Assembly (NCBI GenBank): GCA_024277025.1 | Contig: JAJRWA010000067.1 | Location: 504-64,503, forward strand | Direction: 5' to 3' | Length of the DNA: 64,000 nt | From: Candidatus Krumholzibacteriota bacterium | Lineage (GTDB): Bacteria > Krumholzibacteriota > Krumholzibacteriia > LZORAL124-64-63 | Shown: positions 45,678-59,799 of the stretch, piece by piece | Layout: each line of letters starts with the position of its first letter | Numbering within the stretch: the first letter of the stretch is position 1 | Program-made: the position numbers and the translations under genes | Notes under the pieces: generated by a model | What the model was told of the DNA's origin: nothing | The model's database searches: none | The model's input: the letters and a program-made list of their open reading frames with translations, nothing else

Positions 45678-46736
45678 CTAGCGGTCTTGGCGGCGTCGGC
45701 GCAGTTGGCCGCAGGCCGCGTCGATATCGCGTCCGCCACTGGCCCGGATGAAGGTGGGCACTCCGGCCGCGGTCAGGACCTGCTGGAAGGCCAGCACGCG
45801 CGGTTGTTCGGTGGGTACCAGTTTGGAGTCCGACAGGGGATTCAGGGGGATCAGGTTCACTTTGAAGTTGTGACCTTTGAGCAGACCGGCCAGACGCCGG
45901 GCCTGTTCCGGCAGGTCGGTCGTGTGCTGGATCAGGACCCAGGCAATCGTGACGCGGCGCCCGGCCTGGCGCCCATAGTCGGCGGCCAGACGGAGCGCCT
46001 CCTGCAGCGAGGTTCGACCGGGCACGGGCATGACCTGCTTGCGCTCCTGGTCTGTGCTGCCGCCGAGGCTCAGGGTCAGTCCCACGCCGGGCGCCGTCGC
46101 GATCAGTTGCCTGAGGCCGGCGGCCGGCCCACTGGTCGAGATCTGGATTCGGCGACGGGACATGGCCAGACCGTCGGGGGTCATCAGGATGCGGAGTGCC
46201 ACCTCGACCGCCTCCCAGTTGTCCAGCGGTTCGCCCATACCCATGAAGACGACATTGTGCCCGCGGTCTCCCAGCCCCGGGATCGGGTCGTGGTGCAGGT
46301 CGGCTCGCAGCCGGATCACCTGTTCGACAATTTCGCCTGCGGTCAGTTGCCGCTCCAGACCACCGCGGGCGGTGGCACAGAATGTGCACGCCATGGCGCA
46401 GCCCACCTGGCTGGACAGACAGAAGGTGGCGTGGTCGGCCATGGGGATGATGACGCTCTCGATGGTTTGACCGTCGCGCAAGCGAAACAGGAATTTGCGG
46501 GTCTGGTCACTGGCGAGTTGCCGCTCCTGCAACTGCAGCGCACTGAGGTCGTAGCGCTCCGCGAGGGCTTGCCGCAGAGTGCGGGGCAGGTTCCCCATTT
46601 CGGCCCAGTCCGTGGCGCCATGCTTGAAAGCCCACTCCTGGAGTTGCCGGGCCCGGTAGGCCGGGGCGCCCAAACTGTCGACCAGCGCGGCGAACTGGCC
46701 GGGAACCAGGGAACGGAGCAGGGGTTTGTTTTCCAT
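45678..46736 (-). CDS. rlmN: 23S rRNA/tRNA (adenine-C2)-methyltransferase RlmN (radical SAM)
   Basis: CLSSQVGCAMACTFCAT radical-SAM CxxxCxxC. Full-length RlmN similarity. Confidence 0.9.
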   Translation of the reverse strand: MENKPLLRSLVPGQFAALVDSLGAPAYRARQLQEWAFKHGATDWAEMGNLPRTLRQALAERYDLSALQLQERQLASDQTRKFLFRLRDGQTIESVIIPMADHATFCLSSQVGCAMACTFCATARGGLERQLTAGEIVEQVIRLRADLHHDPIPGLGDRGHNVVFMGMGEPLDNWEAVEVALRILMTPDGLAMSRRRIQISTSGPAAGLRQLIATAPGVGLTLSLGGSTDQERKQVMPVPGRTSLQEALRLAADYGRQAGRRVTIAWVLIQHTTDLPEQARRLAGLLKGHNFKVNLIPLNPLSDSKLVPTEQPRVLAFQQVLTAAGVPTFIRASGGRDIDAACGQLRRRRQDR

Positions 46737-46910: not shown

Positions 46911-48272
46911 GTGAAAACAGTGCTGATCGTCGACGATGAGATCGCCATCCGTGAAACCCTGGAGATGATCCTGACCTACGAGGACTATCAGGTCGTCAAG
47001 GCGGGTTCCGGTGCCGAGGCCCTGGCTGCCGTCGCCAAACAAACGCCGGATGTGATTCTGTTGGATGTGAAAATGCCGGGCATGGACGGCTTCGAGGTCA
47101 TGGAACGCCTGAAAGCCGCCGGCAACGACGCGCCGGTGATTGTGATCTCGGGACACGGCAATATCCAGACGGCGGTCGAGGCAGTCAAGCAGGGCGCCTA
47201 CGATTTTCTGGAAAAACCCCTTGATCGCGATCGGCTGCTGGTCACGCTGGGCAACTGTCTTGACTATCGGAAGGCCCGGCAGGACGTGGCGGTGCTGGTC
47301 GAGCAAACGCAAGCCAGGACGCCGCTGGTGGGCGAAAGCCCGGGGATGCGGGAAGTCAGGACATTTATCGAGAAGGTGGGGGGCAGCGAGGCCACGGTCC
47401 TGATTACCGGCGAAAATGGAACCGGCAAGGAGCTTGTCGTCAGCGCCATTCACCGGATGAGTGCGCGGCGGGATCATCCCCTGGTCGAGGTCAATTGTGC
47501 GGCAATCCCGCGGGACCTGGTTGAATCTGAACTGTTTGGTCACGAGAAAGGCAGTTTCACCGGCGCTGACAGACAGCGGATCGGCAAGTTTGAGCAGGCC
47601 GACGGCGGCACCTTGTTCCTGGACGAGATTGGGGACATGAATGAGGAAGCCCAGGCCAAGGTCCTCAAAGCTGTCGAGGAGAGCCGCTTCCAAAGGGTCG
47701 GTGGAACTGATACGCGAACAGTCGATGTGCGGATTGTCGCGGCCACCAATCGGGACCTTGCTTCGCCGGCTTCGGGATTTCGCCAGGATTTGTTCTTCCG
47801 GCTCAATGTGCTGTCCATCCACTTGCCTCCCCTGCGGGAGCGGCCTGGCGACGTGGAATTGCTGCTGAACTGGTTCATGGCCGATCTGGCGGCCCGGATG
47901 AAGACGGCGCCCCGGCGCTTCGCGCCAGCCACTCTGGAAATCCTGAATGCCTATTCATGGCCCGGCAATGTGCGGGAACTGCGCAACCTGGTGGAGCGCA
48001 TGCTTATACTGGCTTCAGGTGAAGTTGTGCAACCCTCGGATCTGCCCCTCATGCCGGGTACCGAACAGGCTTCTGAAAAATCGACATCTCTGTTTGCCTG
48101 CAACGACTTCCAGGAGTTCAAGGCCAACAGCGAAGGAGAGTTTTTGCAACACAAGCTCAAGGAAAACCTGTACAATGTTTCCAAGACGGCCGAGGTGCTG
48201 GGCATGCAGCGCAGCAATCTGTACAAGAAGATCACAAAGTACGGCTTGCGAACCCAGCCGACTGTCGATTGA
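46911..48272 (+). CDS. Sigma54-dependent response regulator (NtrC family: REC + AAA+ + Fis-HTH)
   Basis: REC domain with D54-like (LLDVKMPGMDG). AAA+ Walker A GENGTGKE. GAFTGA motif in ESELFGHEKGSFTGA. C-terminal HTH. GTG start. No histidine kinase gene adjacent. Confidence 0.85.
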   Translation: MKTVLIVDDEIAIRETLEMILTYEDYQVVKAGSGAEALAAVAKQTPDVILLDVKMPGMDGFEVMERLKAAGNDAPVIVISGHGNIQTAVEAVKQGAYDFLEKPLDRDRLLVTLGNCLDYRKARQDVAVLVEQTQARTPLVGESPGMREVRTFIEKVGGSEATVLITGENGTGKELVVSAIHRMSARRDHPLVEVNCAAIPRDLVESELFGHEKGSFTGADRQRIGKFEQADGGTLFLDEIGDMNEEAQAKVLKAVEESRFQRVGGTDTRTVDVRIVAATNRDLASPASGFRQDLFFRLNVLSIHLPPLRERPGDVELLLNWFMADLAARMKTAPRRFAPATLEILNAYSWPGNVRELRNLVERMLILASGEVVQPSDLPLMPGTEQASEKSTSLFACNDFQEFKANSEGEFLQHKLKENLYNVSKTAEVLGMQRSNLYKKITKYGLRTQPTVD

Positions 48273-48331: not shown

Positions 48332-48360
48332 TTGACTTGCCGAGCGTTCATCCGTAAATA
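48332..48360 (+). promoter_or_regulatory. Near-consensus sigma70 promoter TTGACT-N17-TAAATA upstream of the small secreted protein gene
   Basis: -35 TTGACT at 48332-48337, -10 TAAATA at 48355-48360, exact 17-nt spacer. Confidence 0.5.
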
Positions 48361-48459
48361 ATAAGGACAATCCGCAGTCTTTCCCGGGCAGGTCGGTTGG
48401 GGAAGAAGGCAGCAAAGTTCGTTCAGACGGGGTGTGTATCTTTGAAGGAGAAGAAGAAC

Positions 48460-48801
48460 ATGAAAAGAATCCATATGGTTCTCGTTCTTCTGGTGACAGT
48501 GTTTGTGGTGGTTGCCGCCGGTGGTGCGCCGTTGGCTTACGCCGGTGAGGCGGGCTCCATCCAGGTTCCCGATGCCTTGACCAGGGGAAGCGACACAGTG
48601 TTGAACACTGCGAGCACTCCGCCTGGTGGCGACGACGCCGAGGGCGATCCGGATTCCATGGGTGACGGCCTTTCCAAGGATCTCAACGATTCTGGCGCGT
48701 CTGCCAGTTCCGGCGGCCTGATTATCGACGGCGTTGATATTACGGCGCTTGAGGAGTCCTTGCTGTACATACTGTCGCAGATTCAGATTCTGGTGCTGTA
48801 G
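48460..48801 (+). CDS. Small secreted acidic protein (113 aa, hypothetical)
   Basis: GAAGGAG RBS 9 nt upstream. Signal peptide ending AYA/GEAG. Asp/Gly/Ser-rich mature region. Hydrophobic C-terminus LLYILSQIQILVL. Confidence 0.5.
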   Translation: MKRIHMVLVLLVTVFVVVAAGGAPLAYAGEAGSIQVPDALTRGSDTVLNTASTPPGGDDAEGDPDSMGDGLSKDLNDSGASASSGGLIIDGVDITALEESLLYILSQIQILVL

Positions 48802-48884
48802 GGGGTGCCCGGTTGCGGGCAACCCGGCATCGACAACAATTACGGACAGGTCACCGGTCCACTTCCTCGCCGAGGGAACGGTTG

Positions 48885-50126
48885 ATGAGAGACAACTATA
48901 AGAATCAACGTAGATACGGCGCTGACCGTCAGGCGTTCGGGCGGGCCCTCGAGCCCGCCGCGTGGAGCCGCTTGGAGCAGGTCGGTGATCTCCATTTCCA
49001 TTCGTCTGCGTACTCGTCCGCCCTCGACTATTATGGCCAGTTACTCAACGAGGCGTCGCTCAATGTGGTTCCGTGTGAGCAGGCTTTCGGCGTTCTGCGC
49101 AAGGCCGTCGACTCGCATCTCCTGCTGGGGCATTTGAATCAGGCCACTGAGTTGCTGGATCTGGCATCCAGTCTGGTCAATCGCACGACTGGTTTGTCTG
49201 ACCCCGGCGAAAACGCTGTGCTCAACGCCACGTTCGATATCAGGCGAGCGACTGTTTTCCGCGAGCGCGGCCGGCTGCACGATGCGCTGAACCTGGCCAA
49301 ACGGGCTTTCTCGGTCCTGGCCCTGACGGATCAGCACGCTGATGTGGCACGGTTGCAGGTGGTGATGGGTGTTTGCCATGCCCGGCTCGGACGCGGGGTG
49401 AAGGCCGGCGAGTTCTTTGCCGATGGCTTGTCCACCTACCGCCGCATCGGCCACGACGAGGGCGTGGCCAATCTGCTGAACAACCTGGCTCTGCTGGAAA
49501 AGAACCAGTGCCACTGGGGCAAGGCGCTGGCGCAGATGGAGAAGGCCGTCGAGTTGGCCCACCGGATCGGGGCCAGTCATCTGTTGCCCGGCTTCTATCT
49601 CAATCAGGGAATCGTCCTGCAGAAGATCGACCGTCTCGGCGAGTCCCGTTCGTTGCTGGAAAAGGGATTGCGCCTGGCTGTCAGTCTTGGCGACCAGATC
49701 CATGAAACGCGCCTCAATCTGGCCATGGGGCGGCTTGAAACCCTCTCGGGGCGATTGGCGCGGGCCGAGACTTTGCTGCTCAGCGGCAAGACGCTAGCGG
49801 ATCAGAACCACTTTCTGCGGGAGGCCACCATCGCCGATGAGTATCTCGGTGATGTTCAACTCCTGCGGGGCGACGCGGACAAAGCACGTTTCAATTACCA
49901 GTTGGGATTGGAGAAATCCCGCTCGATCGCCGTGGGCAATGATCTCGAGGGCGAGTTGCAGCGGCGCGTGGGCGAGGCCCACCTGCTTTCCGGCCAACTG
50001 GATGAAGCGATTGCGGTCAGCCAGGCTGCCATTGCTGTCTGTGAGCAGTGCGGTGAAGAGTATGAGATCGGTTTCTGCCATCTGACCCTGGGCAAAGCCT
50101 ACGCGCGCCGGAATGACTGGCAGTAG
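48885..50126 (+). CDS. Cytoplasmic TPR-repeat protein; probably the N-terminal part of the downstream sigma54 activator (same frame, separated by one TAG)
   Basis: Multiple TPR-like units. The ORF ends with TAG at 50124-50126 in the middle of a TPR-like unit (…LGKAYARRNDWQ*SDHHFRQAIARFQDQ…). The downstream ORF is in the same frame. Confidence 0.55.
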   Translation: MRDNYKNQRRYGADRQAFGRALEPAAWSRLEQVGDLHFHSSAYSSALDYYGQLLNEASLNVVPCEQAFGVLRKAVDSHLLLGHLNQATELLDLASSLVNRTTGLSDPGENAVLNATFDIRRATVFRERGRLHDALNLAKRAFSVLALTDQHADVARLQVVMGVCHARLGRGVKAGEFFADGLSTYRRIGHDEGVANLLNNLALLEKNQCHWGKALAQMEKAVELAHRIGASHLLPGFYLNQGIVLQKIDRLGESRSLLEKGLRLAVSLGDQIHETRLNLAMGRLETLSGRLARAETLLLSGKTLADQNHFLREATIADEYLGDVQLLRGDADKARFNYQLGLEKSRSIAVGNDLEGELQRRVGEAHLLSGQLDEAIAVSQAAIAVCEQCGEEYEIGFCHLTLGKAYARRNDWQ

Positions 50127-50267
50127 AGCGATCATCACTTCCGCCAGGCAATCGCCAGATTCCAGGACCAGCGTCTGCAGCACCTGTGGTGCCGCGCGAT
50201 CCTCGAATTTGCCGACCACCGGCTGGAAAACGCAGCCGAGCCGGAACTGCTGCTCTTCAGGCGTTAT

Positions 50268-51992
50268 TTGATGGACGCCCAGGAAGATGGGGCCGCATCG
50301 GTCAGCGATCTGGTCCTGTGTCAGGTGCTGGAAAAGCTGGCCCAGGTCCAGATCCAGTTGGGGCAATTCGACGACGCGCTGCTGACCGTCTTTGAACTCG
50401 AACGCCATGCAACGGGTTGCGAGGACCCGACGCTGGACAACTCGGTTGTGGCCTTGCGCAATCAGATCGAAGCCGGCTTGCTCGGCGGCGTCAACGACAC
50501 CGAGTCCCATCTGCAGGCGATTTCGGGTCTGCCCGGCCTTTTTGCCCAGGGCGGGCCGGCTGTGCCGCGCAATCTGGGGTCCGTGTTGGCCGCAGGTATG
50601 GAGCGAGTGCAGGCGGACAGCGGCTTCATCGCCATGATCAGTCACGATGGCCGGGGTCTCGCGACACATATCGCGGCCCGCAAGGGATTGACCGAGAATC
50701 TGAGCGAGCAGCTCTCCGGTTGGTTTGACGGCGAGCTTTCCAGCGGACGTCGCTCGGGCACGTGTTTCTTTTCCCGGTTGGATCCGGCTGATGATATTGT
50801 CATGGCCGTGCCGGCACTCCTGAGCGTTGCCGACAGTTGTGTCTTCATGCCGATCGCGCTGCACGACCAGCGCTTTGGCCTGCTCTGCCTGGCCAAGTCC
50901 GGTGTCGGCGCCGGTGGTTCGGCCTTTGATCGGGCCAGCCTTGATTTCCTGGCGACCTATATGGGATTCCTGGCGCTCTTCCTCTATGAAAAGGGGCGCG
51001 GCGCCACTGACGAAACTGTGCATACTCCCTTCGAGCGGATCGAGAGCTTCGAGAACATCATCACCCAGAACAGCAAGATGCTTGATGTTCTGGGCCTGGC
51101 GCGCAAGGTGGCGCCCAGTGATTTGACGGTCTTGCTCAGCGGTGAGACCGGAACGGGCAAGGGTTTGCTGGCCTACTCGATCCACGCCTTGAGCAAGCGG
51201 GCTGGCCGGAAGTTCCTCTCCATCAATTGTGCGGCGATCCCCGAAGCGCTGCTGGAGTCCGAGCTGTTCGGCCACAAGCGCGGCAGCTTCACCGGGGCGC
51301 ACAGCGACAAGAAGGGGTTGCTGGCCGAGGCTGAAGGCGGCACCGTATTTCTTGATGAAGTAGGCAAGATGCCCTTCAGCATGCAGGGCAAGTTGCTGCA
51401 TTTCATGGACACCAAGATTGTGCGCCCGGTCGGCGGCAACGTCGAAGTGCCGGTGGATGTGCGGATTGTTTGTGCTTCCAAGGCCGATTTGCATCAGATG
51501 GCCATGGAGGGGAAGTTCCTCGAGGATCTCTATTACCGGCTGCTGGATTTCCCGCTGGTGATGCCGCCGTTGCGCGAGCGTCCCGATGATGTCGAGTTGC
51601 TGACCCGGCATTTCGTCGAACGCTTCAGTATGGAGTTGGCTGGCGAGGTGCCGGCTCTGGATCGGGGTTTCCTGGATTGTCTGGTGCAGCACAGCTGGCC
51701 GGGTAATGTGCGGGAATTGGAGAAGACGCTGCGGCGGGCCATTGTGCTGGCCCAGGGTGATGGTGTTTTGCGTCCCGAGCATTTGCCGGAGCAGATTGCC
51801 GGCACGCCGGATGCGGTGCCCAGTGGTGAGGTGGCCCCGTTGAAGGAGACTTTGGCCGGTATCGAGTGCCGTGAGATCAGGCGCGCTCTCGAGATTTCCG
51901 GTGGCAACAAGTCCCAGGCTTCCCGGGTGTTGAAGATCAGCTATCCGAATCTGTTGAAAAAGATCCGTCACTACGGGATCGTGAAGGACTGA
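50268..51992 (+). CDS. Sigma54-dependent transcriptional activator with a GAF sensor domain (NifA-like: GAF + AAA+ + HTH)
   Basis: GAF region (…MISHDGRGL…HDQRFGLLCL…). AAA+ Walker A GETGTGKG. ESELFGHKRGSFTGA (GAFTGA motif). C-terminal Fis-type HTH. The true N-terminus is probably upstream (see the in-frame TAG). Confidence 0.8.
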   Translation: MMDAQEDGAASVSDLVLCQVLEKLAQVQIQLGQFDDALLTVFELERHATGCEDPTLDNSVVALRNQIEAGLLGGVNDTESHLQAISGLPGLFAQGGPAVPRNLGSVLAAGMERVQADSGFIAMISHDGRGLATHIAARKGLTENLSEQLSGWFDGELSSGRRSGTCFFSRLDPADDIVMAVPALLSVADSCVFMPIALHDQRFGLLCLAKSGVGAGGSAFDRASLDFLATYMGFLALFLYEKGRGATDETVHTPFERIESFENIITQNSKMLDVLGLARKVAPSDLTVLLSGETGTGKGLLAYSIHALSKRAGRKFLSINCAAIPEALLESELFGHKRGSFTGAHSDKKGLLAEAEGGTVFLDEVGKMPFSMQGKLLHFMDTKIVRPVGGNVEVPVDVRIVCASKADLHQMAMEGKFLEDLYYRLLDFPLVMPPLRERPDDVELLTRHFVERFSMELAGEVPALDRGFLDCLVQHSWPGNVRELEKTLRRAIVLAQGDGVLRPEHLPEQIAGTPDAVPSGEVAPLKETLAGIECREIRRALEISGGNKSQASRVLKISYPNLLKKIRHYGIVKD

Positions 51993-52058
51993 TCCGGCCC
52001 GGGGATGGATGTATTAAGTCCCGTGTGGGGACTTGGTTTGTGCATAGCAAAAGTTTAT

Positions 52059-52097
52059 AACGCAACTTGTTCCAGTACAGCAGGTTGCGTTTTTTTA
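52059..52097 (+). terminator. Rho-independent terminator after the sigma54 activator gene
   Basis: AACGCAAC-loop-GTTGCGTT followed by T7. Confidence 0.6.
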
Positions 52098-52227
52098 GGA
52101 ATACCTGTTAATAAAGTTAATAGTAAATTGAGACAGTGGTGATTGCTGGCGTCTTTCAGTTGAACGGGTTGCCTTGTAAGTCGGTATTATGAAGCCTGTT
52201 ATAGAAATTCCAGCCGTTTTGGTCAAG

Positions 52228-52244
52228 TTGGTACGGGCCCTGCT
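52228..52244 (+). promoter_or_regulatory. Candidate sigma54 promoter (-24 TGGTAC / -12 CTGC) inside the low-GC intergenic island
   Basis: TTGGTACGggccCTGCTT has a 10-nt spacing between GG and GC as in TGGCAC-N5-TTGC, and the same -12 CTGC variant as the strong promoter at 52895. Confidence 0.35.
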
Positions 52245-52255
52245 TATGCAGGAGC

Positions 52256-52590
52256 GAAGGGGCGAGTTACAGGGAACCTCTTCGAACTTGATTGATCTTT
52301 GACATTCGTGTTTTCGGGAGAGGCGAGGTTGTTTCCCTCATTTTGCTTACCGGCATGGGGGGAAGTTCTCAACAAGAAGGTTGTCAAAAGGATTGTGAAG
52401 AGGTGGGGTCTGATCAGTCGTTTTTTGGCGGCGAGAGAGAATCTGCAACCTTTTCTCCCGAAACACGAATTTCAAGGAACACTCAGGACATACAGTTCTG
52501 GATCTCTCACCGGAGATCATAAAAAGAGCCCTTACTGATCTTGAAAAGGCGAGATTCAAGGTCAGGCTGCCGCAAGGCGGGGCTCTTTTT
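52256..52590 (+). ncRNA. Candidate structured small RNA (about 300 nt), unknown family, defined by promoter, long closing helix and terminator
   Basis: Low-GC (about 47%) non-coding stretch. 5' arm ATTCGTGTTTTCGGGAGAG-gcg-AGGTTG (52304-52331) pairs with CAACCT-ttt-TCTCCCGAAACACGAAT (52446-52470). Internal hairpins. The 3' end at 52521-52590 is AAAAAGAGCCC…GGGGCTCTTTTT with an inner CCGCaagGCGG hairpin. The ORFs here have atypical low-GC codon usage. Confidence 0.3.
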
Positions 52591-52894
52591 CCATGCCTGG
52601 AACTCAGGCCGCCCGGGCCGTGAAACCAGGGAATCACCAGGCTTTGTTCCGTCTCTTTTTGGATAATCTGTCCTGCAATTCACACAGCCACCAGCGAAAA
52701 AAGGACAGCCAGGATCCGGTCGATGGTGACGCGCGACCGCTTGCTGCCGGCAGGTGTTGGCGTGTGCAGTGACGCCTGGAGTTTTCCAACATGCGTAATT
52801 GTAGCGAGTTAGCTGGTTGCTGGCCCGTGGCCGTCGGCTATGGTCTCCCGTAGTTCTGATCTGACTGAACCATGACTGCCGGCTCGACCGAGGG

Positions 52895-52909
52895 TGGCAC
52901 AAAGTCTGC
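52895..52909 (+). promoter_or_regulatory. Strong sigma54 promoter TGGCAC-N5-CTGC about 45 nt upstream of the lipoprotein gene
   Basis: agggTGGCACaaagtCTGCg: the -24 element is perfect, the -12 element is CTGC, and spacing is canonical. Predicted TSS is about 52921. Confidence 0.5.
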
Positions 52910-52951: not shown

Positions 52952-54019
52952 ATGAGCAAAGCCAATGAACTCCGAAGGGCGAACGATACGCGACTCAGGA
53001 CGGCCTCCGTGTGGGCCGTTCCCGCGGGCGGTTTCGGAGCGAAATTGACGAGCAGGCTTCTGGTGGCCCTGGTCTTGTCCTTGCTGGTGGCGTTGGCCGG
53101 TTGCGAGTCCGACGAGGACTGTATCAACTGCGTCGACTTGCCGCCTCCTGTCGTACCCACGGGTGTGCACAGTATCAGTGGCAACAATGAAGTGATTGTC
53201 CAGTGGATCGACATCGCCTACGCCCCTTACGACGACAGCTACAACGAAAACGTAACCACCTATTTCATCTACAGCCGATTCTACGAGAACGGCGATGAGT
53301 TTGATCCGGACCGCGAATTCTTCTTCATCGGTGAAGTGGCCTGGAACGAGAACTATGACGGCAGCACCGGGCTGCACTGGTTCTATGACACCGAAGCGGT
53401 CAACGGCGAGCAGTACGAATACGCCGTGGCCGCCGTCAATGCCGCTGGACGGCAGAGTGCCCTGAGTTTCGAATTTGTCGCCGATGCGCCGTTGCCGATG
53501 AGTCCGCTCGACGGGCAGGGCTGGTTCCTGCCCGTCGAGGTCTTCGATGGCAACGGTCCGAGTGTCAATCTCTCGGCCTTCAATTTCCGCACGGCAGGAT
53601 TGAATCCGACGGTGCTGACCGCGGGCCGCGTCAGCCCGGCCGCCCCTCACCATATCAGGATCAGTATCGAGGGCGGTATTGCCTACGCGCTGGCCGAGGT
53701 CGCGTCCACGAGGATTCAGGACTTCGGCTCGTTCAGTGACGGCAACGGCAATGTGATCTTCGAGGGCGTTTCGTGGGCGCCGGCTGAGGGGTATTCGCGC
53801 ACCGGCAGGCTGGAACTGGTTGAAGGCCATGTCTATGTCGCGGAAATCATCGATCCGGTGACCAGCGAGTTGCATTACGCCAAGTTCGGCATCAACGCGA
53901 TCAACGCCGGTTCGGTCGAGCTCATCTGGGCCTACCAGCTGATTCCCGGGTTGCCGGAACTCAAAATGCCGAACCCGGGCGGCGATCCCGGGGTCAAGCC
54001 GCAAGTGATAAAGCTCTAG
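52952..54019 (+). CDS. Lipoprotein with a fibronectin-III/Ig-like beta-sandwich region (hypothetical)
   Basis: GACAGGAGG RBS. Signal peptide plus lipobox LAGC. FN3-like segment (…EYAVAAVNAAGRQS…). Confidence 0.6.
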   Translation: MSKANELRRANDTRLRTASVWAVPAGGFGAKLTSRLLVALVLSLLVALAGCESDEDCINCVDLPPPVVPTGVHSISGNNEVIVQWIDIAYAPYDDSYNENVTTYFIYSRFYENGDEFDPDREFFFIGEVAWNENYDGSTGLHWFYDTEAVNGEQYEYAVAAVNAAGRQSALSFEFVADAPLPMSPLDGQGWFLPVEVFDGNGPSVNLSAFNFRTAGLNPTVLTAGRVSPAAPHHIRISIEGGIAYALAEVASTRIQDFGSFSDGNGNVIFEGVSWAPAEGYSRTGRLELVEGHVYVAEIIDPVTSELHYAKFGINAINAGSVELIWAYQLIPGLPELKMPNPGGDPGVKPQVIKL

Positions 54020-54064: not shown

Positions 54065-56029
54065 ATGACCCGCACATCGAATTACAACCCGACACTGAAC
54101 TCCCTGAGGAATCGGGGAGGGATGGGCTTCGCGCTGGCTGCCGTTTGGGCTCTCCTGTTCACCATTGCGCCGGGACCTGCCCGGGGCCAGGATTACGAAG
54201 TGGGCGGCCGCAGTGACTATCAGGCGGAAAAGACAGTGGCTGACTACACGAGCCAGGCCCAGCAGGCCGCTGGTAACGACTTCGACTACCAGGCCAACCC
54301 CTTGCGGGTCGAGGTCTGGGTCGACAAGCCCGCCGGCGAGGTCTATCGCAAGGGCGAGGAGATCCGGGTGGGCGTGCAGACCAACGAAGACGCCTACGCT
54401 GTCGTGTACCGAATTGATTCCGAGGGCCTGGTGACGATTCTCTGGCCCCGGAGCCGCTTCGACGACGGCTTCCTCTTTGGTGGCCATGAGTATTCCCTGC
54501 CGGTGACGGGCGGGCGCAGCCTGCGGGTGTCGACGCAGGAAGGGGAGGGTATTGTTGAAGCGATCGTCTCGCGCTATCCCTTCGACCTGCGGGCCCTGGA
54601 ACTGGATTTTCATCACGAGAGCACGAACGAGCGCTACGATTTTGCGGTGGCCGGTGACCCTTTCCTGGCCATGAACGAGGTCAACTATGCGGTGACCGGG
54701 CTGGAGGATTCGGCGGAATTCGTGGTGACCAATTATGTCAGCTACTATGTCCACCAGCAGGTGGATCATCCGCGCTACCTGTGCAGTCAGTGCCATATCG
54801 ACGATGGTCTGGCGACTGATCCCTACGGGGAGACCTGCACGCTGGACATCCAGTACGACTACTCCTGGTACAACAGCTGGTACGACCGCTACGGTTACTA
54901 TCCCGTCTACGGCAATCCGGTCTATGTGTATATCGATCCCTGGACCTACAACCCCTGGGTCAACTACTGGTACACGCCCTACTACAGCAGCGCGCCGTGG
55001 TACGGCTGGGGCTGGGGCTGGGGCGTGTCCTACATCTGGGGCTATTCGCCCTACTACTGGGGCAACAGCGTGACGGCCTACAACAGTGGCTACCAGCGCT
55101 ATCGTCCGCTGGACCGGTCGGGACTGGACGGCGGCCGCGGCGGTTCGGTGACCAAGACCAGGGAGTATTCGCGTGGCTCGGAAATGGTGCGCAAGAGTGG
55201 GCCTTCCGAGAGTGAACGCGGTTCGATGAAAGCACGTACCCGAACGGACAGAAGCTCCCGGGACCGGACGACGGTTGCCGGCCGCAGCACCGGTGGCCGG
55301 GATCCGAATTACCGGGGTGCGCCGGCCGAATCCCGTTCGCGGGGCTCCGCAGGCCAGGTGGCCACGACCGGGCGCAGCCAGAGCGGATTGCGAATTCGTG
55401 AGAGCGGGCGTGGCTCCGGCACGACGAGAACGCGGACGTCGGCCACGACGACGTCACGCCGGCATACGGCGGCCGGTGAAGGCCGGCGCGCTGGACTCGT
55501 GCCCGTGAGCCGGGGATCCTCTTTTGACAATGAAACCTGGCGGGGCACCAGCCGGGTCGGTGGTCGCAGCACCACGACAGTCGGCCGCAGCGGCCGGACA
55601 GGATCGGGCTCCGGCCGCAGCAACAGCCCGGCCGCCTCGGCCAACAACCGCACCCGAAGTTCGAGTGGCGGGAAGGCCGTGCAGCCGCGGAAACGCAGCA
55701 CCCGGGTGTGGAACGCGACCGGCAGCCGCTCCGGCTCGAGTCAGAACTCGCGGCGGTCCCGGTCCAGTGCGGTGAACAACCGCAGTACCGGCGGCCGCAG
55801 CGGCAACAGTGCCACGAGCGTCAAGCGCACGAGATCTTCGGGCAGCAAGTCGAGCGGTGGCAAGTCGTCCGGTGGCCGGTCCAGTGGTGTCAAACGCAGT
55901 GGCGGGTCCCGGGGCGGCAGCAGCGCCGGACGCACAGGCGGTGGCTCCCGGGGCGGCAGTTCCGGCGGTGGCCGGTCGTCAGGCGGTTCCCGGAGTTCCG
56001 GCGGCCGCAGCAGTTCGTCACGTCGCTAG
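54065..56029 (+). CDS. Exported DUF4384-domain protein with an aromatic (W/Y)-rich segment and an Arg/Ser/Gly/Thr-rich disordered C-terminal tail of about 300 aa
   Basis: AAGGAGAG RBS. Signal peptide. DUF4384-like block (…VWVDKPAGEVYRKGEEIRVGVQTNEDAYAVVYRIDSEGLVTILWP…). CSQCH motif. A 90-aa stretch at about 40% W+Y. Tail made of RS, SG and RT repeats ending …GGRSSGGSRSSGGRSSSSRR. 45-nt gap to the upstream lipoprotein gene, so they are probably an operon. Confidence 0.7.
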   Translation: MTRTSNYNPTLNSLRNRGGMGFALAAVWALLFTIAPGPARGQDYEVGGRSDYQAEKTVADYTSQAQQAAGNDFDYQANPLRVEVWVDKPAGEVYRKGEEIRVGVQTNEDAYAVVYRIDSEGLVTILWPRSRFDDGFLFGGHEYSLPVTGGRSLRVSTQEGEGIVEAIVSRYPFDLRALELDFHHESTNERYDFAVAGDPFLAMNEVNYAVTGLEDSAEFVVTNYVSYYVHQQVDHPRYLCSQCHIDDGLATDPYGETCTLDIQYDYSWYNSWYDRYGYYPVYGNPVYVYIDPWTYNPWVNYWYTPYYSSAPWYGWGWGWGVSYIWGYSPYYWGNSVTAYNSGYQRYRPLDRSGLDGGRGGSVTKTREYSRGSEMVRKSGPSESERGSMKARTRTDRSSRDRTTVAGRSTGGRDPNYRGAPAESRSRGSAGQVATTGRSQSGLRIRESGRGSGTTRTRTSATTTSRRHTAAGEGRRAGLVPVSRGSSFDNETWRGTSRVGGRSTTTVGRSGRTGSGSGRSNSPAASANNRTRSSSGGKAVQPRKRSTRVWNATGSRSGSSQNSRRSRSSAVNNRSTGGRSGNSATSVKRTRSSGSKSSGGKSSGGRSSGVKRSGGSRGGSSAGRTGGGSRGGSSGGGRSSGGSRSSGGRSSSSRR

Positions 56030-56252
56030 CGGCGTCAGGCGAGGAATTCAGATTGTGTTGGTGGTTTCCCCCCATCACCCGTCGGCCGGAGAGAGACCGG
56101 ATTCTCGAAGAGGTTGGCACCAAAACGGGAAGGGTAGCGAACCGACTGGACGGGGACACCGACACATCAATGGAGAGCCCGGCGGGGGAATGTCGATCAG
56201 GGGTGACAGGTACCGCGTCGGGCTCTCCGACTCTCCACAGATCAGCGCGTGA

Positions 56253-56281
56253 TTGACCGGGCTGCGGGCCCTGCCTATAAT
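56253..56281 (+). promoter_or_regulatory. Near-consensus sigma70 promoter TTGACC-N17-TATAAT upstream of the large CTD-bearing cargo gene
   Basis: -35 TTGACC at 56253-56258, -10 TATAAT at 56276-56281. Confidence 0.5.
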
Positions 56282-56349: not shown

Positions 56350-59300
56350 ATGCGCATTATTCCCTTCGCCCTTTGGTTTAGCCTTGTTGCTGTCCACGGC
56401 GCGGTTCCTGCCACCGCCGGGACACCGGTGGTCTACGGGGCGGATGCTGCCGGTACCGCAGCGGTTGCCGGGCTGCAGGAACTCCTACGGGCGCAATCGG
56501 CCCCGCTGCGGGCTGATGCCGCGCGCGGTCGCCAGGCCAGTCGTCTGGCTGGCGAGAGGGCCCCCGACACGCTGAATGCCCTGGTCATGATGTGCGACTT
56601 CAGCGACAGTTTGATGCTCGGCCGTTACGGCCAGGTGCCGGGTGATTTCCCGCCGCCGATGCAGACCGATCGTCACTACGCCGCCCACGATTCGGTCTAC
56701 TTCGACCATATGTTGAGCAAGGTGTCCGACTACTTCACCACGGTCAGTGGTTCCCGGCTCACGATCAACTACACCATTCATCCCCGCACGATCAATCTGC
56801 CGCAACCCATGTGGTTCTATGGCAATCATCCGCAGGAAGGCGAGCAGACCATGCTGCTGGCCGCTCAGGTGGTCGACAGTCTGGGCACCGAGATCGACCT
56901 GTCCTTGTACGACACTTTTGTGCTGATGCACGCCGGTGCGGGTGAAGAAACCGACATCCTGGGCAACAGCCCCGAACAGATCTTCAGTACCTATCTCGAT
57001 CCGGACGATTTTGCGGCCGCAGTCGAGGACAGCATTCTGGAGCAGCCGTACCTGCCGGCGCCCGGTTTCCCGGCGGGAACCGGAATCGACCGTGTTCTGG
57101 TCCTGCCGGAGACGGAGCAGCAGGATCCGGTCGGGGGCTTCGGGGGCGGCTTTGGCAGCCTGGGTGTCTACTGCTTCGAGTTTGGGCTGCATCTGGGCAT
57201 GCTTTCGCTGAGCGATTTTACGCCTTCGGGTCGGCCGGACAGCCAGGGCATCGGCCAGTATGGCCTGATGGGGTACGGGCTGTTCGTCGGGCTGGGCTTC
57301 ATTCCGCCGCACCCCTGCGCCTACAACAAACTGCTGATGGGTTGGCTGGATCCCTACGAGGCCGACGCCCGGAGCGGCGGCACGTATAGGCTGACGCCGT
57401 CCGAGGCACCGAACCAGCCGTTGGCCTGCGCCCGGGTGAATCTCACCGGCCAGGAGTTCTGGCTGCTGGAATACCGCCTGCAGGATCCCAACGGGGATCG
57501 GCGCTATACATTCGGCGACGACAAGAACGGCAATGGGCTGCCTGATTTCTACGACATGGATTCCACTGTGGGTGGCGGCATTCCCACCGGCAAGTTCGAC
57601 GCGGCCACCGATTCCCTGGAGCGGGTCATCGAGGCCGAGTGGGACTTTGCCATGAGCGAGAACAGCGCGCGCGTCCTGGGCGAGTTGGGCTGGGGGAGCG
57701 GCGTCTATGTGTGGCACATCGACGAGGGCGTGATTGCGAGCGTGATTGATGCGCCGCGCAATCTCTTCAACGCCGACGCCGGGCGCAAGTCGGTGGACCT
57801 GGAAGAGGCCGACGGGATTCAGGACCTGGACTCCAACGAACCGTCGGCGTATATGCTGGGCGGCGATGATGACAGCTTTCGCGGCGAGTTCACGGCGGAT
57901 TTCACGCCGTCGACGCGCCCGAATACCGGAACCTCGAGCGGGGCCTACAGCGGAGTCGCCTTCAGGAATTTCAGCAATGTGGTGACCGACTCCTTCGTGG
58001 CGCCGCTGTACACCGATCCGGAGACCGGGATCACCTACTGGGCCTTCGAGTACGCTGATACCATGTCCTTTGATCTTCAGATTGAAACAGCTGCGGCCGG
58101 TGCGCCGGTGCTGCACGCGCGCCGGGATCTGGCGCCCGGAACGGACTTGCGCGGGTCCCATGTCCTGGTGGGCGATCTGGACCAACTGGGGGGCACTGAC
58201 GAGATCATTCTGGCCGGACATGCAGGCGAGGTTTTTGTGCTGGACGGGAATCTGGATGAATTCCTGGACCACGACGGTGATGCGGCCACCCTGGAGCCAT
58301 TCGTGGTCGGCACGCGCGGCGGGGCGCCGGTGGTGTGGAACCTGCCGCCGGCCCTGGGCGACATCGATGGCGATGGCGAGCCGGAAATCCTGCTGACCGG
58401 GGCCGGAGGGTTGTTCGCCTTCAAGCGGGACGGAACCGCAGTGCGCAACCCGGAACCGGGATCTTTCGGGCTCTATGCGGATGTCCCCGGCTGCGAATTG
58501 CCGCCGGTTCTGCTGGCCGATTCGCGATTCAGCCCAGAGGCGGATCCGGGTGCGAGGGTGCAGGCACTGGTCATGGAGCAGGGGCCGGGCGGCGCCCGAC
58601 TGTTGTTCCTGCGCGGGGCTGATGCCACGGAGATAGCCGCGGTAGACCTGGGTGACGGGGTCGTCAGGTCGGTGCCGCTGGCCCTGGATGACTATGTTGT
58701 GGTGGCCGTGGCCGATACCAGTGGGGCGAACAACCGCCTGGTGATCCTGGAGCGTACGGCGGATATTCTGCCGGCGATTCCATCCCGCCTGGACCTGGCT
58801 TTGTCCGGGATGCCCGGGCGGTTGCCGCTGCTGGCTGGTATCGCCCCCGGCAGTGATCCGGCCCAACCACTCTTTTTTGTGACCGTAATCGATACGGCCG
58901 GGCGTGGTGAGACCGTCTTCTTCGATAACAACCTGGTGGCGGCACGGGAGCCCAGCCTGTGGCCGGTCGACCTGGTGGTTGCAGCCCCTCTCGGTCTGGG
59001 CGGCGCCTTTGTGGGCCAGGATGTTCTGGGGCGGGTCGGCAACGGTGGCCATTGGCTGACCGGGTGGCCGCGACGGCCGCTGCAGGGCGACCTGGCCGGT
59101 GATTCACGGTGGCAGGGGCAGCCTCTGGTGGCCCAACTTGTTGGTTCGGTCCAGAATCTGGACCAGTTTATTTTTCCGACGCGGGATGGGCGCCTGTTCG
59201 CCACCGGCGGGCAGGGCGATGATGAGCCGGGCTGGCCGCTGGCCGGGCCGGCGGTCTCGGCCGGTACGCCGGCCTTTGGGCAACTGGTTGGCTCACCCGA

Positions 59301-59799
59301 TGCTGATCTGGTGACGACCGGGACCTTTGACCGGATCACCGGTACTGACGGGGCAGCGGGACTTGCCACCGAACCGGTGGCCACGGTGGCGGTCTGGCGT
59401 GATCTCGCGGTTGCGCAGCCTATCTGGCCGATGCATGGTGGGTCGGTCTGGCGCAACGGGTCTTTTGACCTGGCGGTCTGGCAGCCCGGCGGGGCTGTTG
59501 CACCGGGCACAGGCCTGGTGTCCGGCAGCCACTTCTGCTTCCCGAGTCCCCTGGAAGAGGGCCCGCTGCAGGTGAGCGGCAAGGTCCGCAGTCCGGCACG
59601 GGTCAAAGTCGTGGTGTATAATCTTGAAGGGGAAGAGGTGGGGCAAACCGGTTGGCAGGCGGTCGGCCCGGTTGAACCTTTCATTGTTGGTATTGACTTG
59701 CCGGGGGCGGTAACGGGGCTTTACCTGTGCCGTCTGGTGGTCGATACCCCGGGAGTCGGAACGGAGAACAGTGTGACTCAGTTCGCGATTGTCCACTGA
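56350..59799 (+). CDS. Large secreted protein (1149 aa): M6 (InhA)-like N-terminal region without a canonical HEXXH, FG-GAP/VCBS-type repeats, and a C-terminal T9SS/FlgD-Ig-type sorting domain
   Basis: Signal peptide. M6-domain-like N-terminal 450 aa, but the expected HEYGHDLG position reads CFEFGLHLGM. FG-GAP-like repeats (GDLDQLGGTDEIILAG…, GDIDGDGEPEILLTG…). C-terminal …TGLYLCRLVVDTPGVGTENSVTQFAIVH beta-sandwich tail. Confidence 0.7.
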   Translation: MRIIPFALWFSLVAVHGAVPATAGTPVVYGADAAGTAAVAGLQELLRAQSAPLRADAARGRQASRLAGERAPDTLNALVMMCDFSDSLMLGRYGQVPGDFPPPMQTDRHYAAHDSVYFDHMLSKVSDYFTTVSGSRLTINYTIHPRTINLPQPMWFYGNHPQEGEQTMLLAAQVVDSLGTEIDLSLYDTFVLMHAGAGEETDILGNSPEQIFSTYLDPDDFAAAVEDSILEQPYLPAPGFPAGTGIDRVLVLPETEQQDPVGGFGGGFGSLGVYCFEFGLHLGMLSLSDFTPSGRPDSQGIGQYGLMGYGLFVGLGFIPPHPCAYNKLLMGWLDPYEADARSGGTYRLTPSEAPNQPLACARVNLTGQEFWLLEYRLQDPNGDRRYTFGDDKNGNGLPDFYDMDSTVGGGIPTGKFDAATDSLERVIEAEWDFAMSENSARVLGELGWGSGVYVWHIDEGVIASVIDAPRNLFNADAGRKSVDLEEADGIQDLDSNEPSAYMLGGDDDSFRGEFTADFTPSTRPNTGTSSGAYSGVAFRNFSNVVTDSFVAPLYTDPETGITYWAFEYADTMSFDLQIETAAAGAPVLHARRDLAPGTDLRGSHVLVGDLDQLGGTDEIILAGHAGEVFVLDGNLDEFLDHDGDAATLEPFVVGTRGGAPVVWNLPPALGDIDGDGEPEILLTGAGGLFAFKRDGTAVRNPEPGSFGLYADVPGCELPPVLLADSRFSPEADPGARVQALVMEQGPGGARLLFLRGADATEIAAVDLGDGVVRSVPLALDDYVVVAVADTSGANNRLVILERTADILPAIPSRLDLALSGMPGRLPLLAGIAPGSDPAQPLFFVTVIDTAGRGETVFFDNNLVAAREPSLWPVDLVVAAPLGLGGAFVGQDVLGRVGNGGHWLTGWPRRPLQGDLAGDSRWQGQPLVAQLVGSVQNLDQFIFPTRDGRLFATGGQGDDEPGWPLAGPAVSAGTPAFGQLVGSPDADLVTTGTFDRITGTDGAAGLATEPVATVAVWRDLAVAQPIWPMHGGSVWRNGSFDLAVWQPGGAVAPGTGLVSGSHFCFPSPLEEGPLQVSGKVRSPARVKVVVYNLEGEEVGQTGWQAVGPVEPFIVGIDLPGAVTGLYLCRLVVDTPGVGTENSVTQFAIVH

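Follow-up and report, generated by a model that had tools for sequence, protein, structure and literature searches.

What is encoded in the G+C-poor gap that separates a sigma-54 activator gene from a lipoprotein operon in Candidatus Krumholzibacteriota? The gap belongs to a 64,000-nucleotide stretch of contig JAJRWA010000067.1 (the window), in which the activator gene ends with its stop codon (51990-51992) and, after a further 959 nt, a lipoprotein-like gene begins at 52952. A first-pass annotation, made from the letters alone, had proposed a novel structured RNA transcribed from a sigma-54 promoter behind the sigma-54 activator gene. This proposal has held up: the element is present in 18 loci, its fold is backed by covariation and no Rfam family matches it. 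Judged by the pattern of change among relatives, the conserved element is an RNA, read from the plus strand and non-coding. More specifically, we consider it moderately probable that 52255-52590 is an independent, activator-dependent, trans-acting structured regulatory RNA. The same annotation had described an island of about 47% G+C in surroundings of 68%; the island is there (47.2% in 51993-52600), the value for the surroundings did not stand, as the whole window has 64.1%.

Limits and conservation of the element

Homologues of the RNA element were found at full length in 18 distinct loci, from Krumholzibacteriota-type metagenome-assembled genomes and from metagenomes. They came from a genome scan (two syntenic loci), a metagenome scan and look-ups of 11 lipoprotein homologues down to 50% identity. 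The metagenome scan with an invariant 18-mer gave 11 matches, four of them real and seven due to chance within coding DNA. With an nhmmer profile, a full-length match was obtained in every locus that includes the upstream region (E 1e-31 to 1e-113), and the window contains a single copy. All 18 loci have the element between the gene of a TPR-containing sigma-54 enhancer-binding protein (bEBP) and the lipoprotein-DUF4384 operon, and none has it elsewhere. Nucleotide identity to one of the relatives, L001, is 79% in the RNA region and 74% in the adjacent upstream coding stretch. As far as sampled, the RNA would be an uncatalogued family confined to Krumholzibacteriota-type genomes. The features that delimit it are:

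52229 to 52243, plus strand: predicted sigma-54 (-24/-12) promoter P1, TGGTACG-GGCC-CTGC, with a predicted start at about 52255
52255 to 52590, plus strand: non-coding RNA gene, predicted length 336 nt (304-340 nt in relatives)
52521 to 52590, plus strand: three-way terminator domain with the outer stem AAAAAGAGCCC/GGGCTCTTTTT, hairpins T3 and T4 inside it and a U-tract at the end
52895 to 52909, plus strand: second predicted sigma-54 promoter, TGGCAC-AAAGT-CTGC, which would serve the lipoprotein operon

The sigma-54-like element noticed earlier at 52228-52245 is indeed present there as TTGGTACGGGCCCTGCTT, and its position is kept in 18/18 loci. Its core TGGTACGGGCCCTGC (52229-52243) has the spacing GG-N10-GC, i.e. 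the GG at -24 and the GC at -12 are exactly 10 nt apart, as in sigma-54 promoters of the type TGGCAC-N5-TTGC. It is important to note that the pattern TGGYAY-N6-TGC is by itself not above chance in the window (4 matches versus 2.5 +/- 1.7 expected). The significance of promoter P1 therefore comes from the comparison with relatives and not from the pattern count alone: TGGTAYG-N4-nTGC stands upstream of the RNA in every one of the 18 loci, with a spacer sequence that differs. In the same 18 loci the C of the -12 element is 13-16 nt ahead of the first G of the conserved 5' stem GAAGRGG, the distance in the window being 13 nt. Because this distance is fixed, conservation starts at the predicted +1.

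The other end of the element is formed by the terminal structure at 52521-52590, which had also been pointed out before and is confirmed by our analysis. AAAAAGAGCCC (52521-52531) and GGGCTCTTTTT (52580-52590) are 11-nt arms with 100% complementarity, and the 3' arm ends in TTTTT. A G+C-rich stem that runs directly into a U-tract is what defines an intrinsic terminator, and a U-tract of 3-7 nt is found at 18/18 loci. The terminator is atypical in having two extra hairpins within the stem. T3 (52535-52565) has a loop with invariant GGCGAG, and T4 (52569-52578) has a GNRA loop in every sequence (GCAA, GAAA, GCGA, GUAA, GGAA or GAGA). Since promoter P1, the U-tract terminator and a separate second sigma-54 promoter frame the element, 52255-52590 appears to be a transcription unit of its own and not simply the leader of the lipoprotein gene.

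The alternative that survives best is a role in cis. Promoter P1 would then transcribe the lipoprotein-DUF4384 operon with the RNA as its long structured 5' leader, the terminator would be a regulated attenuator (riboswitch-like or protein-controlled) that governs read-through into the operon, and the second promoter would be an extra input. Its location is consistent with this, the RNA being upstream of the lipoprotein operon and on the same strand at 18/18 loci and nowhere else, and many riboswitches likewise consist of a complex conserved fold with a terminator behind it. In addition, the U-tracts are short in some relatives, and in 18/18 sequences a pairing is possible between AAGAG (loop of helix P5 and terminator 5' arm) and CTCTT (3' strand of stem P1 and terminator 3' arm). 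However, a separate sigma-54 promoter (TGGCAY-N6-TGC) stands between the terminator and the operon in all 18 loci, 214-341 nt past the RNA terminator and a few tens of nt before the lipoprotein start. The interval from the terminator to this promoter differs in length among loci and shows little conservation, save one block of about 40 nt. A riboswitch or attenuator should have no intervening promoter and should have mutually exclusive terminator and antiterminator helices; here a promoter intervenes, and the search for an antiterminator helix yielded nothing convincing, just alternative pairings of 5-7 bp whose partners are either invariant or changed without compensation. Moreover, the invariant loop and the GNRA hairpin within the terminator domain are what a functional 3' domain would show, and no Rfam riboswitch model matches. 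The first-pass annotation had itself named a long 5' untranslated region (UTR) of the lipoprotein gene as the outcome that would speak against a separate RNA; the conserved terminator and the lipoprotein gene's own sigma-54 promoter, both at 18/18 loci, argue for more than that. Altogether we regard the cis leader as rather unlikely.

Non-coding status and fold

The earlier statement that the gap holds no credible open reading frame (ORF) agrees with the comparison of relatives. Stop-free stretches of 40-100 codons occur, with a frame and position that vary among relatives, and since hardly any indel has a length divisible by 3, every frame is broken. A small protein-coding gene was considered and rejected, as no frame is kept in position and phase.

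When 52256-52595 was folded with RNAfold, as had been recommended in the first-pass annotation, the predicted structure had a free energy of -135 kcal/mol (z = -5.4), and none of 100 dinucleotide shuffles was as good. A consensus fold was derived with RNAalifold from 15 aligned sequences. It has ten helices with 73 pairs, and 95.1% of the cells are standard pairs. Compensatory double changes are seen in 30 of the 73 pairs (73 cells). This is the covariation that had been suggested as a check; column shuffles did not reach any of the five measures (0/500). As a further control the 3' partners were slid by 1-3 columns, upon which only 39-61% of cells paired and 7-30 cells were compensatory. The helices with the strongest covariation are P5 (12/15 pairs), T3 (8/11) and P4 (4/8). 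Upstream of the terminator domain the parts of the fold are as follows:

52256 to 52283, plus strand: hairpin P1, GAAGGGG/CCTCTTC, 7 pairs (98% of cells paired) with hardly any variation in stem or loop
52305 to 52321, plus strand: 5' strand TTCGTGTTTTCGGGAGA of the long-range closing helix P2, pairing with 52454-52469
52335 to 52361, plus strand: hairpin P3/P3a with near-invariant GCTTACCGGC; CCYTC/GARGG-type stems that change on both sides (per-sequence folds)
52363 to 52444, plus strand: P4-P5 arm with the invariant apical loop GAGGTGGGGTC (52400-52410) and the junction AACAAGAAG (52371-52379)
52454 to 52469, plus strand: 3' strand TCTCCCGAAACACGAA of P2, pairing with 52305-52321
52501 to 52518, plus strand: hairpin P6, GATCTCT-CACC-GGAGATC; a hairpin is found here in 15/18 sequences

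The long-range helix reported in the first-pass annotation is real. A repeat search found its arms at 52289-52313/52461-52485 and 52312-52321/52454-52463, and RNAfold of the window sequence pairs 52293-52331 with 52446-52481. The part common to all relatives is 52305-52321 with 52454-52469 (16-17 bp), while the inner extension of 6-7 bp and the outer one of about 11 bp are restricted to the lineage of the window. In the consensus P2 comprises 16 pairs with 95% of cells paired; four pairs are compensatory and the sequence is otherwise nearly invariant. The loop of hairpin P1, ACAGGGA(A/T)CC, is invariant apart from the A/T position. P3 and P6 were misaligned by MAFFT and were therefore folded sequence by sequence. 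The tip of P3 is swapped for a GNRA hairpin in one clade, and the P6 stems differ among relatives (GGAUCUG/CGGAUCC, GGGCCUG/CAGGUCC, AGAUCUGA/UCAGAUCU and others). A pseudoknot between the P5 loop and a strand of hairpin P1, GAAGAGGU:ACCUCUUC, is perfect in the window; its changes in relatives are uncompensated and it was dropped. The repeat search found no internal repeat units in the RNA.

Pairing also assigns the strand, with 95.1% of cells paired when the plus strand is read versus 85.0% for the minus strand, and 131 cells are G-U, which would be C-A on the opposite strand. These observations bear on another explanation of the locus, namely that there is no RNA and that the conserved positions are DNA-level sites for the second sigma-54 promoter (arrays of enhancers or upstream activating sequences (UAS), bending sites) or a small protein gene. 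In its favour, the region is followed by a sigma-54 promoter, which depends on distal activator sites, several of the conserved blocks have no assigned function, and the window offers ORFs of 76-96 codons. Yet DNA-binding sites do not need double changes that keep 30 of 73 pairs complementary despite sequence drift, nor would they give the strand-specific pattern produced by G-U pairs. The promoter and the terminator frame the conserved block exactly, and a protein gene is contradicted by the broken frames described above. We consider this explanation highly improbable.

Relation to known RNAs

At gathering scores Rfam 15 has no family for the RNA in the window or in 13 relatives, and its only hit elsewhere in the window is a tRNA; the Rfam comparison proposed in the first-pass annotation thus leaves the RNA without a family. 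Lowering the threshold to E <= 10 for the RNA region yielded only chance matches to models of eukaryotic long non-coding RNAs and microRNAs. In the literature we found nothing on Krumholzibacteriota together with non-coding RNA or sigma-54, and nothing that joins a sigma-54 promoter, a structured RNA and covariation.

The likeness to 6S RNA (SsrS) that had been noted at first did not survive. A 6S-like RNA, in which a closing helix around an open centre mimics promoter DNA and sequesters RNA polymerase holoenzyme, has next to no chance of being the right description here: a long-range helix closing an interior of about 130 nt is common to both, but no 6S model matches at E <= 10 (or at gathering scores in the 13 relatives), the fold is multi-branched (hairpin P1, P3 with the P4-P5 junction, P6 and the three-way terminator domain) and not a rod with a central bubble, its ten helices take up 304-340 nt against about 180-200 nt for 6S, and a strictly activator-dependent promoter is unlike the housekeeping expression of 6S. 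Membership in the 6S family was rejected on these grounds.

A sigma-54-dependent RNA next to a sigma-54 activator had been called an unusual regulatory arrangement. This is not the case, as CrcZ/CbrB, NrsZ/NtrC and Qrr1/LuxO are precedents (PMC5113210, PMC4253122, PMC10162802). The RNA described here fits this kind: it is non-coding, has a -24/-12 promoter and adjoins a gene for an enhancer-binding protein. Membership in the individual families CrcZ, NrsZ, Qrr and GlmY is another matter, since no covariance model matches in the window or in the 13 relatives.

In all Pseudomonas genomes analysed to date, crcZ is located downstream of cbrB, and its expression depends on RpoN and CbrB (PMC5113210). 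Like the RNA here, CrcZ (with CrcY) is a few hundred nt long, and it acts in trans by titrating Hfq/Crc. There is no homology in sequence or structure between the two (no Rfam match), and the RNA here has a covarying ten-helix fold. The CrcZ system, moreover, comes from a different phylum and has a response regulator as activator, in contrast to the TPR N-terminus of the bEBP here. CrcZ has several A-rich motifs, whereas the RNA here has one AANAANAA-like stretch, AACAAGAA at 52371-52378, which in relatives is replaced by AACGAGAA, AACAGGAA or AACAAGUC. A sponge of the CrcZ type for Hfq/Crc was rejected, because several AANAANAA motifs would be expected and one unconserved stretch was found.

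In Pseudomonas aeruginosa nrsZ directly follows ntrC, has the RpoN promoter TGGCAC-N5-CTGC and depends on NtrC and RpoN (PMC4253122). NrsZ is processed into base-pairing units of about 40 and 140 nt, in contrast to the RNA here, which has no internal repeat units and is not homologous. The qrr1 promoter of Vibrio is driven by two enhancer-binding proteins, LuxO and, in V. fischeri, SypG (PMC10162802). The resemblance to our locus lies in sigma-54 dependence and in the two bEBPs, as two bEBP genes are located just upstream of the RNA here (46911-48272 and 48885-51992). The Qrr RNAs are about 100 nt long, Hfq-dependent and act by seed pairing; the RNA here is not homologous to them, is threefold larger and is conserved over many loops. 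In enterobacteria GlmY, which is controlled by GlrR and sigma-54, serves as a decoy for RapZ in a cell-envelope pathway (PMC7073468, PMC4152352). Homology is again lacking, and a partner of the RapZ type is a feature of GlmY. GlmY is about 150-180 nt long with three stem-loops. Compared with most of CrcZ, NrsZ, Qrr1 and GlmY the RNA here is two to three times larger, and its conservation extends over many loops and junctions.

Large structured RNAs are closer in appearance. OLE, raiA, ROOL, GOLLD and HEARO, which were discovered through comparative genomics, are several hundred nt long and lineage-restricted, with many covarying helices, invariant positions in loops and junctions, and GNRA tetraloops. 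The RNA here shares these traits, and none of their Rfam models matches it. To our knowledge a conserved sigma-54 promoter and a fixed place behind a bEBP gene are not defining features of any of the five. We also looked for the features of a CsrA sponge of the CsrB/RsmZ type, in which hairpin loops present many GGA motifs. The invariant loop ACAGGGA resembles the CsrA consensus ACA-R-GGA from SELEX (systematic evolution of ligands by exponential enrichment), and it is the only such loop; the other invariant loops are without GGA. From the sequence comparison, the RNA would belong to a known kind, the enhancer-binding-protein-linked, sigma-54-dependent regulatory RNAs, with a sequence and a fold that are new.

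Neighbourhood and possible role

Four further conserved features were found outside the two promoters and the RNA:

52059 to 52096, plus strand: candidate terminator of the bEBP gene, a hairpin of 13 pairs followed by TTTTTT (terminator scan)
52105 to 52123, no strand assigned: conserved block CTGTTAATAAAGTTAATAG, consensus TGTAAA-N5-TTTATA, about 130-150 bp ahead of the predicted start (15 aligned upstream regions)
52192 to 52201, no strand assigned: [CT]A[AG]-N4-TT[AG] element, about 55-60 bp ahead of the start (upstream alignment)
52649 to 52686, no strand assigned: conserved block CGTCyCwTTTTGGrkAAnCTGTCC...CACA, in 15/15 aligned loci

The inverted repeat at 52059-52096 is kept in most of 15 relatives (it is weak in three), with changes in both arms and usually with a T-run. 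It is a probable intrinsic terminator of the bEBP gene, which would set that gene apart from the RNA gene. The block at 52105-52123 is a candidate activator-binding site (UAS). The element at 52192-52201 looks like a possible IHF site (consensus WATCAR-N4-TTR) and presumably occupies the usual DNA-bending position of sigma-54 promoters. The predicted layout upstream of promoter P1, with a distal block and an IHF-like element, fits an enhancer-dependent promoter. No binding motif that could be linked to either bEBP was found in the conserved blocks upstream of promoter P1. In the 15 aligned loci the block at 52649-52686 follows the RNA terminator at a distance of 30-110 nt and precedes the second sigma-54 promoter by about 200-250 bp; it has no k-mer in common with the region upstream of promoter P1 and may be an activator site for the second promoter.

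The genes around the RNA in the window are:

46911 to 48272: response-regulator-type bEBP gene, upstream of the TPR-bEBP gene
48460 to 48801, plus strand: small ORF of 113 aa with a hydrophobic, signal-like N-terminus and no family, preceding the bEBP gene in all loci
48885 to 51992, plus strand: TPR-bEBP gene, a single frame of 1036 codons with an in-frame TAG at 50124-50126
52952 to 54019, plus strand: lipoprotein-like gene, 355 aa, first gene of the operon and followed by the DUF4384 gene
54065 to 56029, plus strand: DUF4384 gene, directly after the lipoprotein gene
56350 to 59799, plus strand: gene of 1149 aa, starting after a second RNA element

This order is shared by the relatives. In loci with enough flanking sequence we found a small ORF of secreted type (about 105-114 aa), the TPR/sigma-54 activator (about 1037 aa), the RNA element, the lipoprotein, the DUF4384 protein and a protein of about 1150 aa. 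That the gene upstream of the RNA encodes a sigma-54 activator, as first annotated, is supported by its Pfam matches to TPR_12/TPR_MalT, Sigma54_activat (1.3e-62), AAA_lid_14 and HTH_8. Its orthologue is one gene of about 1037 aa in relatives, with the exception of locus L028, where the gene calls are fragmented. More specifically, in L028 (1-3860) the activator region is broken up into a 488-aa TPR piece and short ORFs, next to an intact RNA and operon, owing either to decay of the activator gene or to an assembly rich in frameshifts. Two promoter-like patterns were noticed further upstream: the sigma-54 pattern TGGCACAGAATGTGC at 46373-46387 (plus strand), about 540 nt upstream of the response-regulator bEBP gene, and the sigma-70-like TTGACT-N17-TAAATA at 48332-48366, upstream of the 113-aa ORF and kept in the window and in loci L004 and L013.

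For the 355-aa lipoprotein no Pfam or NCBIfam family was found, and its exact sequence has no database record under exact look-up. A search at E <= 1e-5 gave 180 homologues; where a taxon name is attached, as to a few of them, it is Krumholzibacteriota. The 1149-aa protein is similar to the NCBIfam model 'T9SS-dependent M6-like inactivated metalloprotease' (E 5e-52, under the curated cutoff) and to the M6 metalloprotease domain, which suggests a secreted or surface protein.

A second non-coding element of about 180 nt was observed at 56053-56235 (plus strand), between the end of the DUF4384 gene (56029) and the start of the 1149-aa gene (56350). It is very strongly conserved, being present in 11/11 loci examined, and consists of a long-range helix and a terminator-like hairpin GGAGAGCCC...GGGCTCTCC; 13 of the 51 pairs in its consensus fold are compensatory. 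Rfam has no match for it. No homology to the first RNA is detectable; the closing stems of the first RNA's 3' domain and of this element share AGAGCCC/GGGCTCT, and a search for pairing between the two gave nothing above shuffles. Probably it belongs to the sigma-54-driven operon, as a structured 3'-UTR or RNA element. Just past this second element there is a conserved sigma-70-type promoter, TTGACC-N17-TATAAT (56253-56281, plus strand), which implies a separate transcript for the 1149-aa gene, distinct from that of the lipoprotein-DUF4384 operon.

The 5' leader of the bEBP gene (48802-48887, plus strand) is likewise conserved and non-coding, with 1-nt indels among relatives. Its consensus is ACCGRTCCACTnnCTCGCCRAGGGAwrCGGTyGATG, and a hairpin can form at 48852-48887 whose 3' strand contains the ribosome-binding site and whose apparent loop has invariant CTCGCC. 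When the RNA was compared with the start regions of five neighbouring genes in 11 loci, GGCGAG of the T3 loop and CUCGCC of this leader were the sole conserved Watson-Crick 6-mer complementarity (11/11 loci). This suggests feedback on activator translation and is a lead, not a result. Unrestricted RNAduplex runs against the neighbouring start regions gave meaningless full-length duplexes with z near 0.

Taken as a trans-acting regulatory RNA, the element would work as follows. Sigma-54 promoters need an enhancer-binding ATPase, and the RNA would therefore be made solely when such an ATPase is active. The adjacent TPR-bEBP would be the most likely activator, with the response-regulator bEBP (46911-48272) as the alternative. 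The RNA would be induced together with the lipoprotein/DUF4384 envelope operon and would act in trans as the post-transcriptional arm of that regulon. With regard to the mode of action we tentatively favour a folded RNA that binds a protein, to titrate or to scaffold it, because conservation extends over at least six loops and junctions, an invariant helix and GNRA tetraloops, and not over one single-stranded seed. A base-pairing antisense RNA is a more doubtful possibility, i.e. protein binding is somewhat likelier than seed pairing.

Several observations weigh against the trans-acting reading. The transcript and both its 5' and 3' ends are predictions from sequence, and all source organisms are uncultured. 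No copy of the RNA gene was found apart from the lipoprotein operon, a synteny that is compatible with a cis role; in some relatives the U-tract is only 3-4 U long. No activator motif is common to the regions upstream of promoter P1 and of the second sigma-54 promoter. Genes for CsrA, Hfq and ProQ are absent from the approximately 350 kb examined, an amount that is uninformative for whole genomes. The GGCGAG/CUCGCC pairing comprises 6 bp with both partners invariant, hence without covariation, and it is not clearly above null RNAs, which give about one comparable 6-mer match per three nulls. Finally, the TPR-bEBP gene of the window has the in-frame TAG. The codon is Gln (CAG) in five of six relatives and Val in the other, and the TAG arose either by a C-to-T nonsense mutation or by an error in the reads or the assembly. 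A real TAG would mean that this genome encodes a truncated form of the RNA's presumed activator.

Our results add a well-supported structured RNA family, not catalogued so far, from a candidate phylum represented by metagenomes only, with promoter, terminator and covarying fold all defined. The pairing of a bEBP gene with a sigma-54-transcribed regulatory RNA has so far been documented in Proteobacteria, and the same design is now seen outside them. The size and intricacy of the fold, well beyond those of Qrr, GlmY, NrsZ or CrcZ, hint that the protein or ligand with which the RNA interacts may be more elaborate as well. Since the promoter is of the strictly activator-dependent type and the locus is compact (activator, RNA, operon and second RNA element), it could be rebuilt in a heterologous host in search of the signal and the targets. 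A more far-reaching reading, which we hold to be unlikely, is a tertiary-structured riboregulator: a folded sensor or scaffold for a protein or ligand that would be the output of the TPR activator, exert feedback through a GGCGAG-CUCGCC kissing interaction and act jointly with the element at 56053-56235. If this is true, an envelope regulon in a phylum without a cultured member would be governed by a control module centred on RNA.

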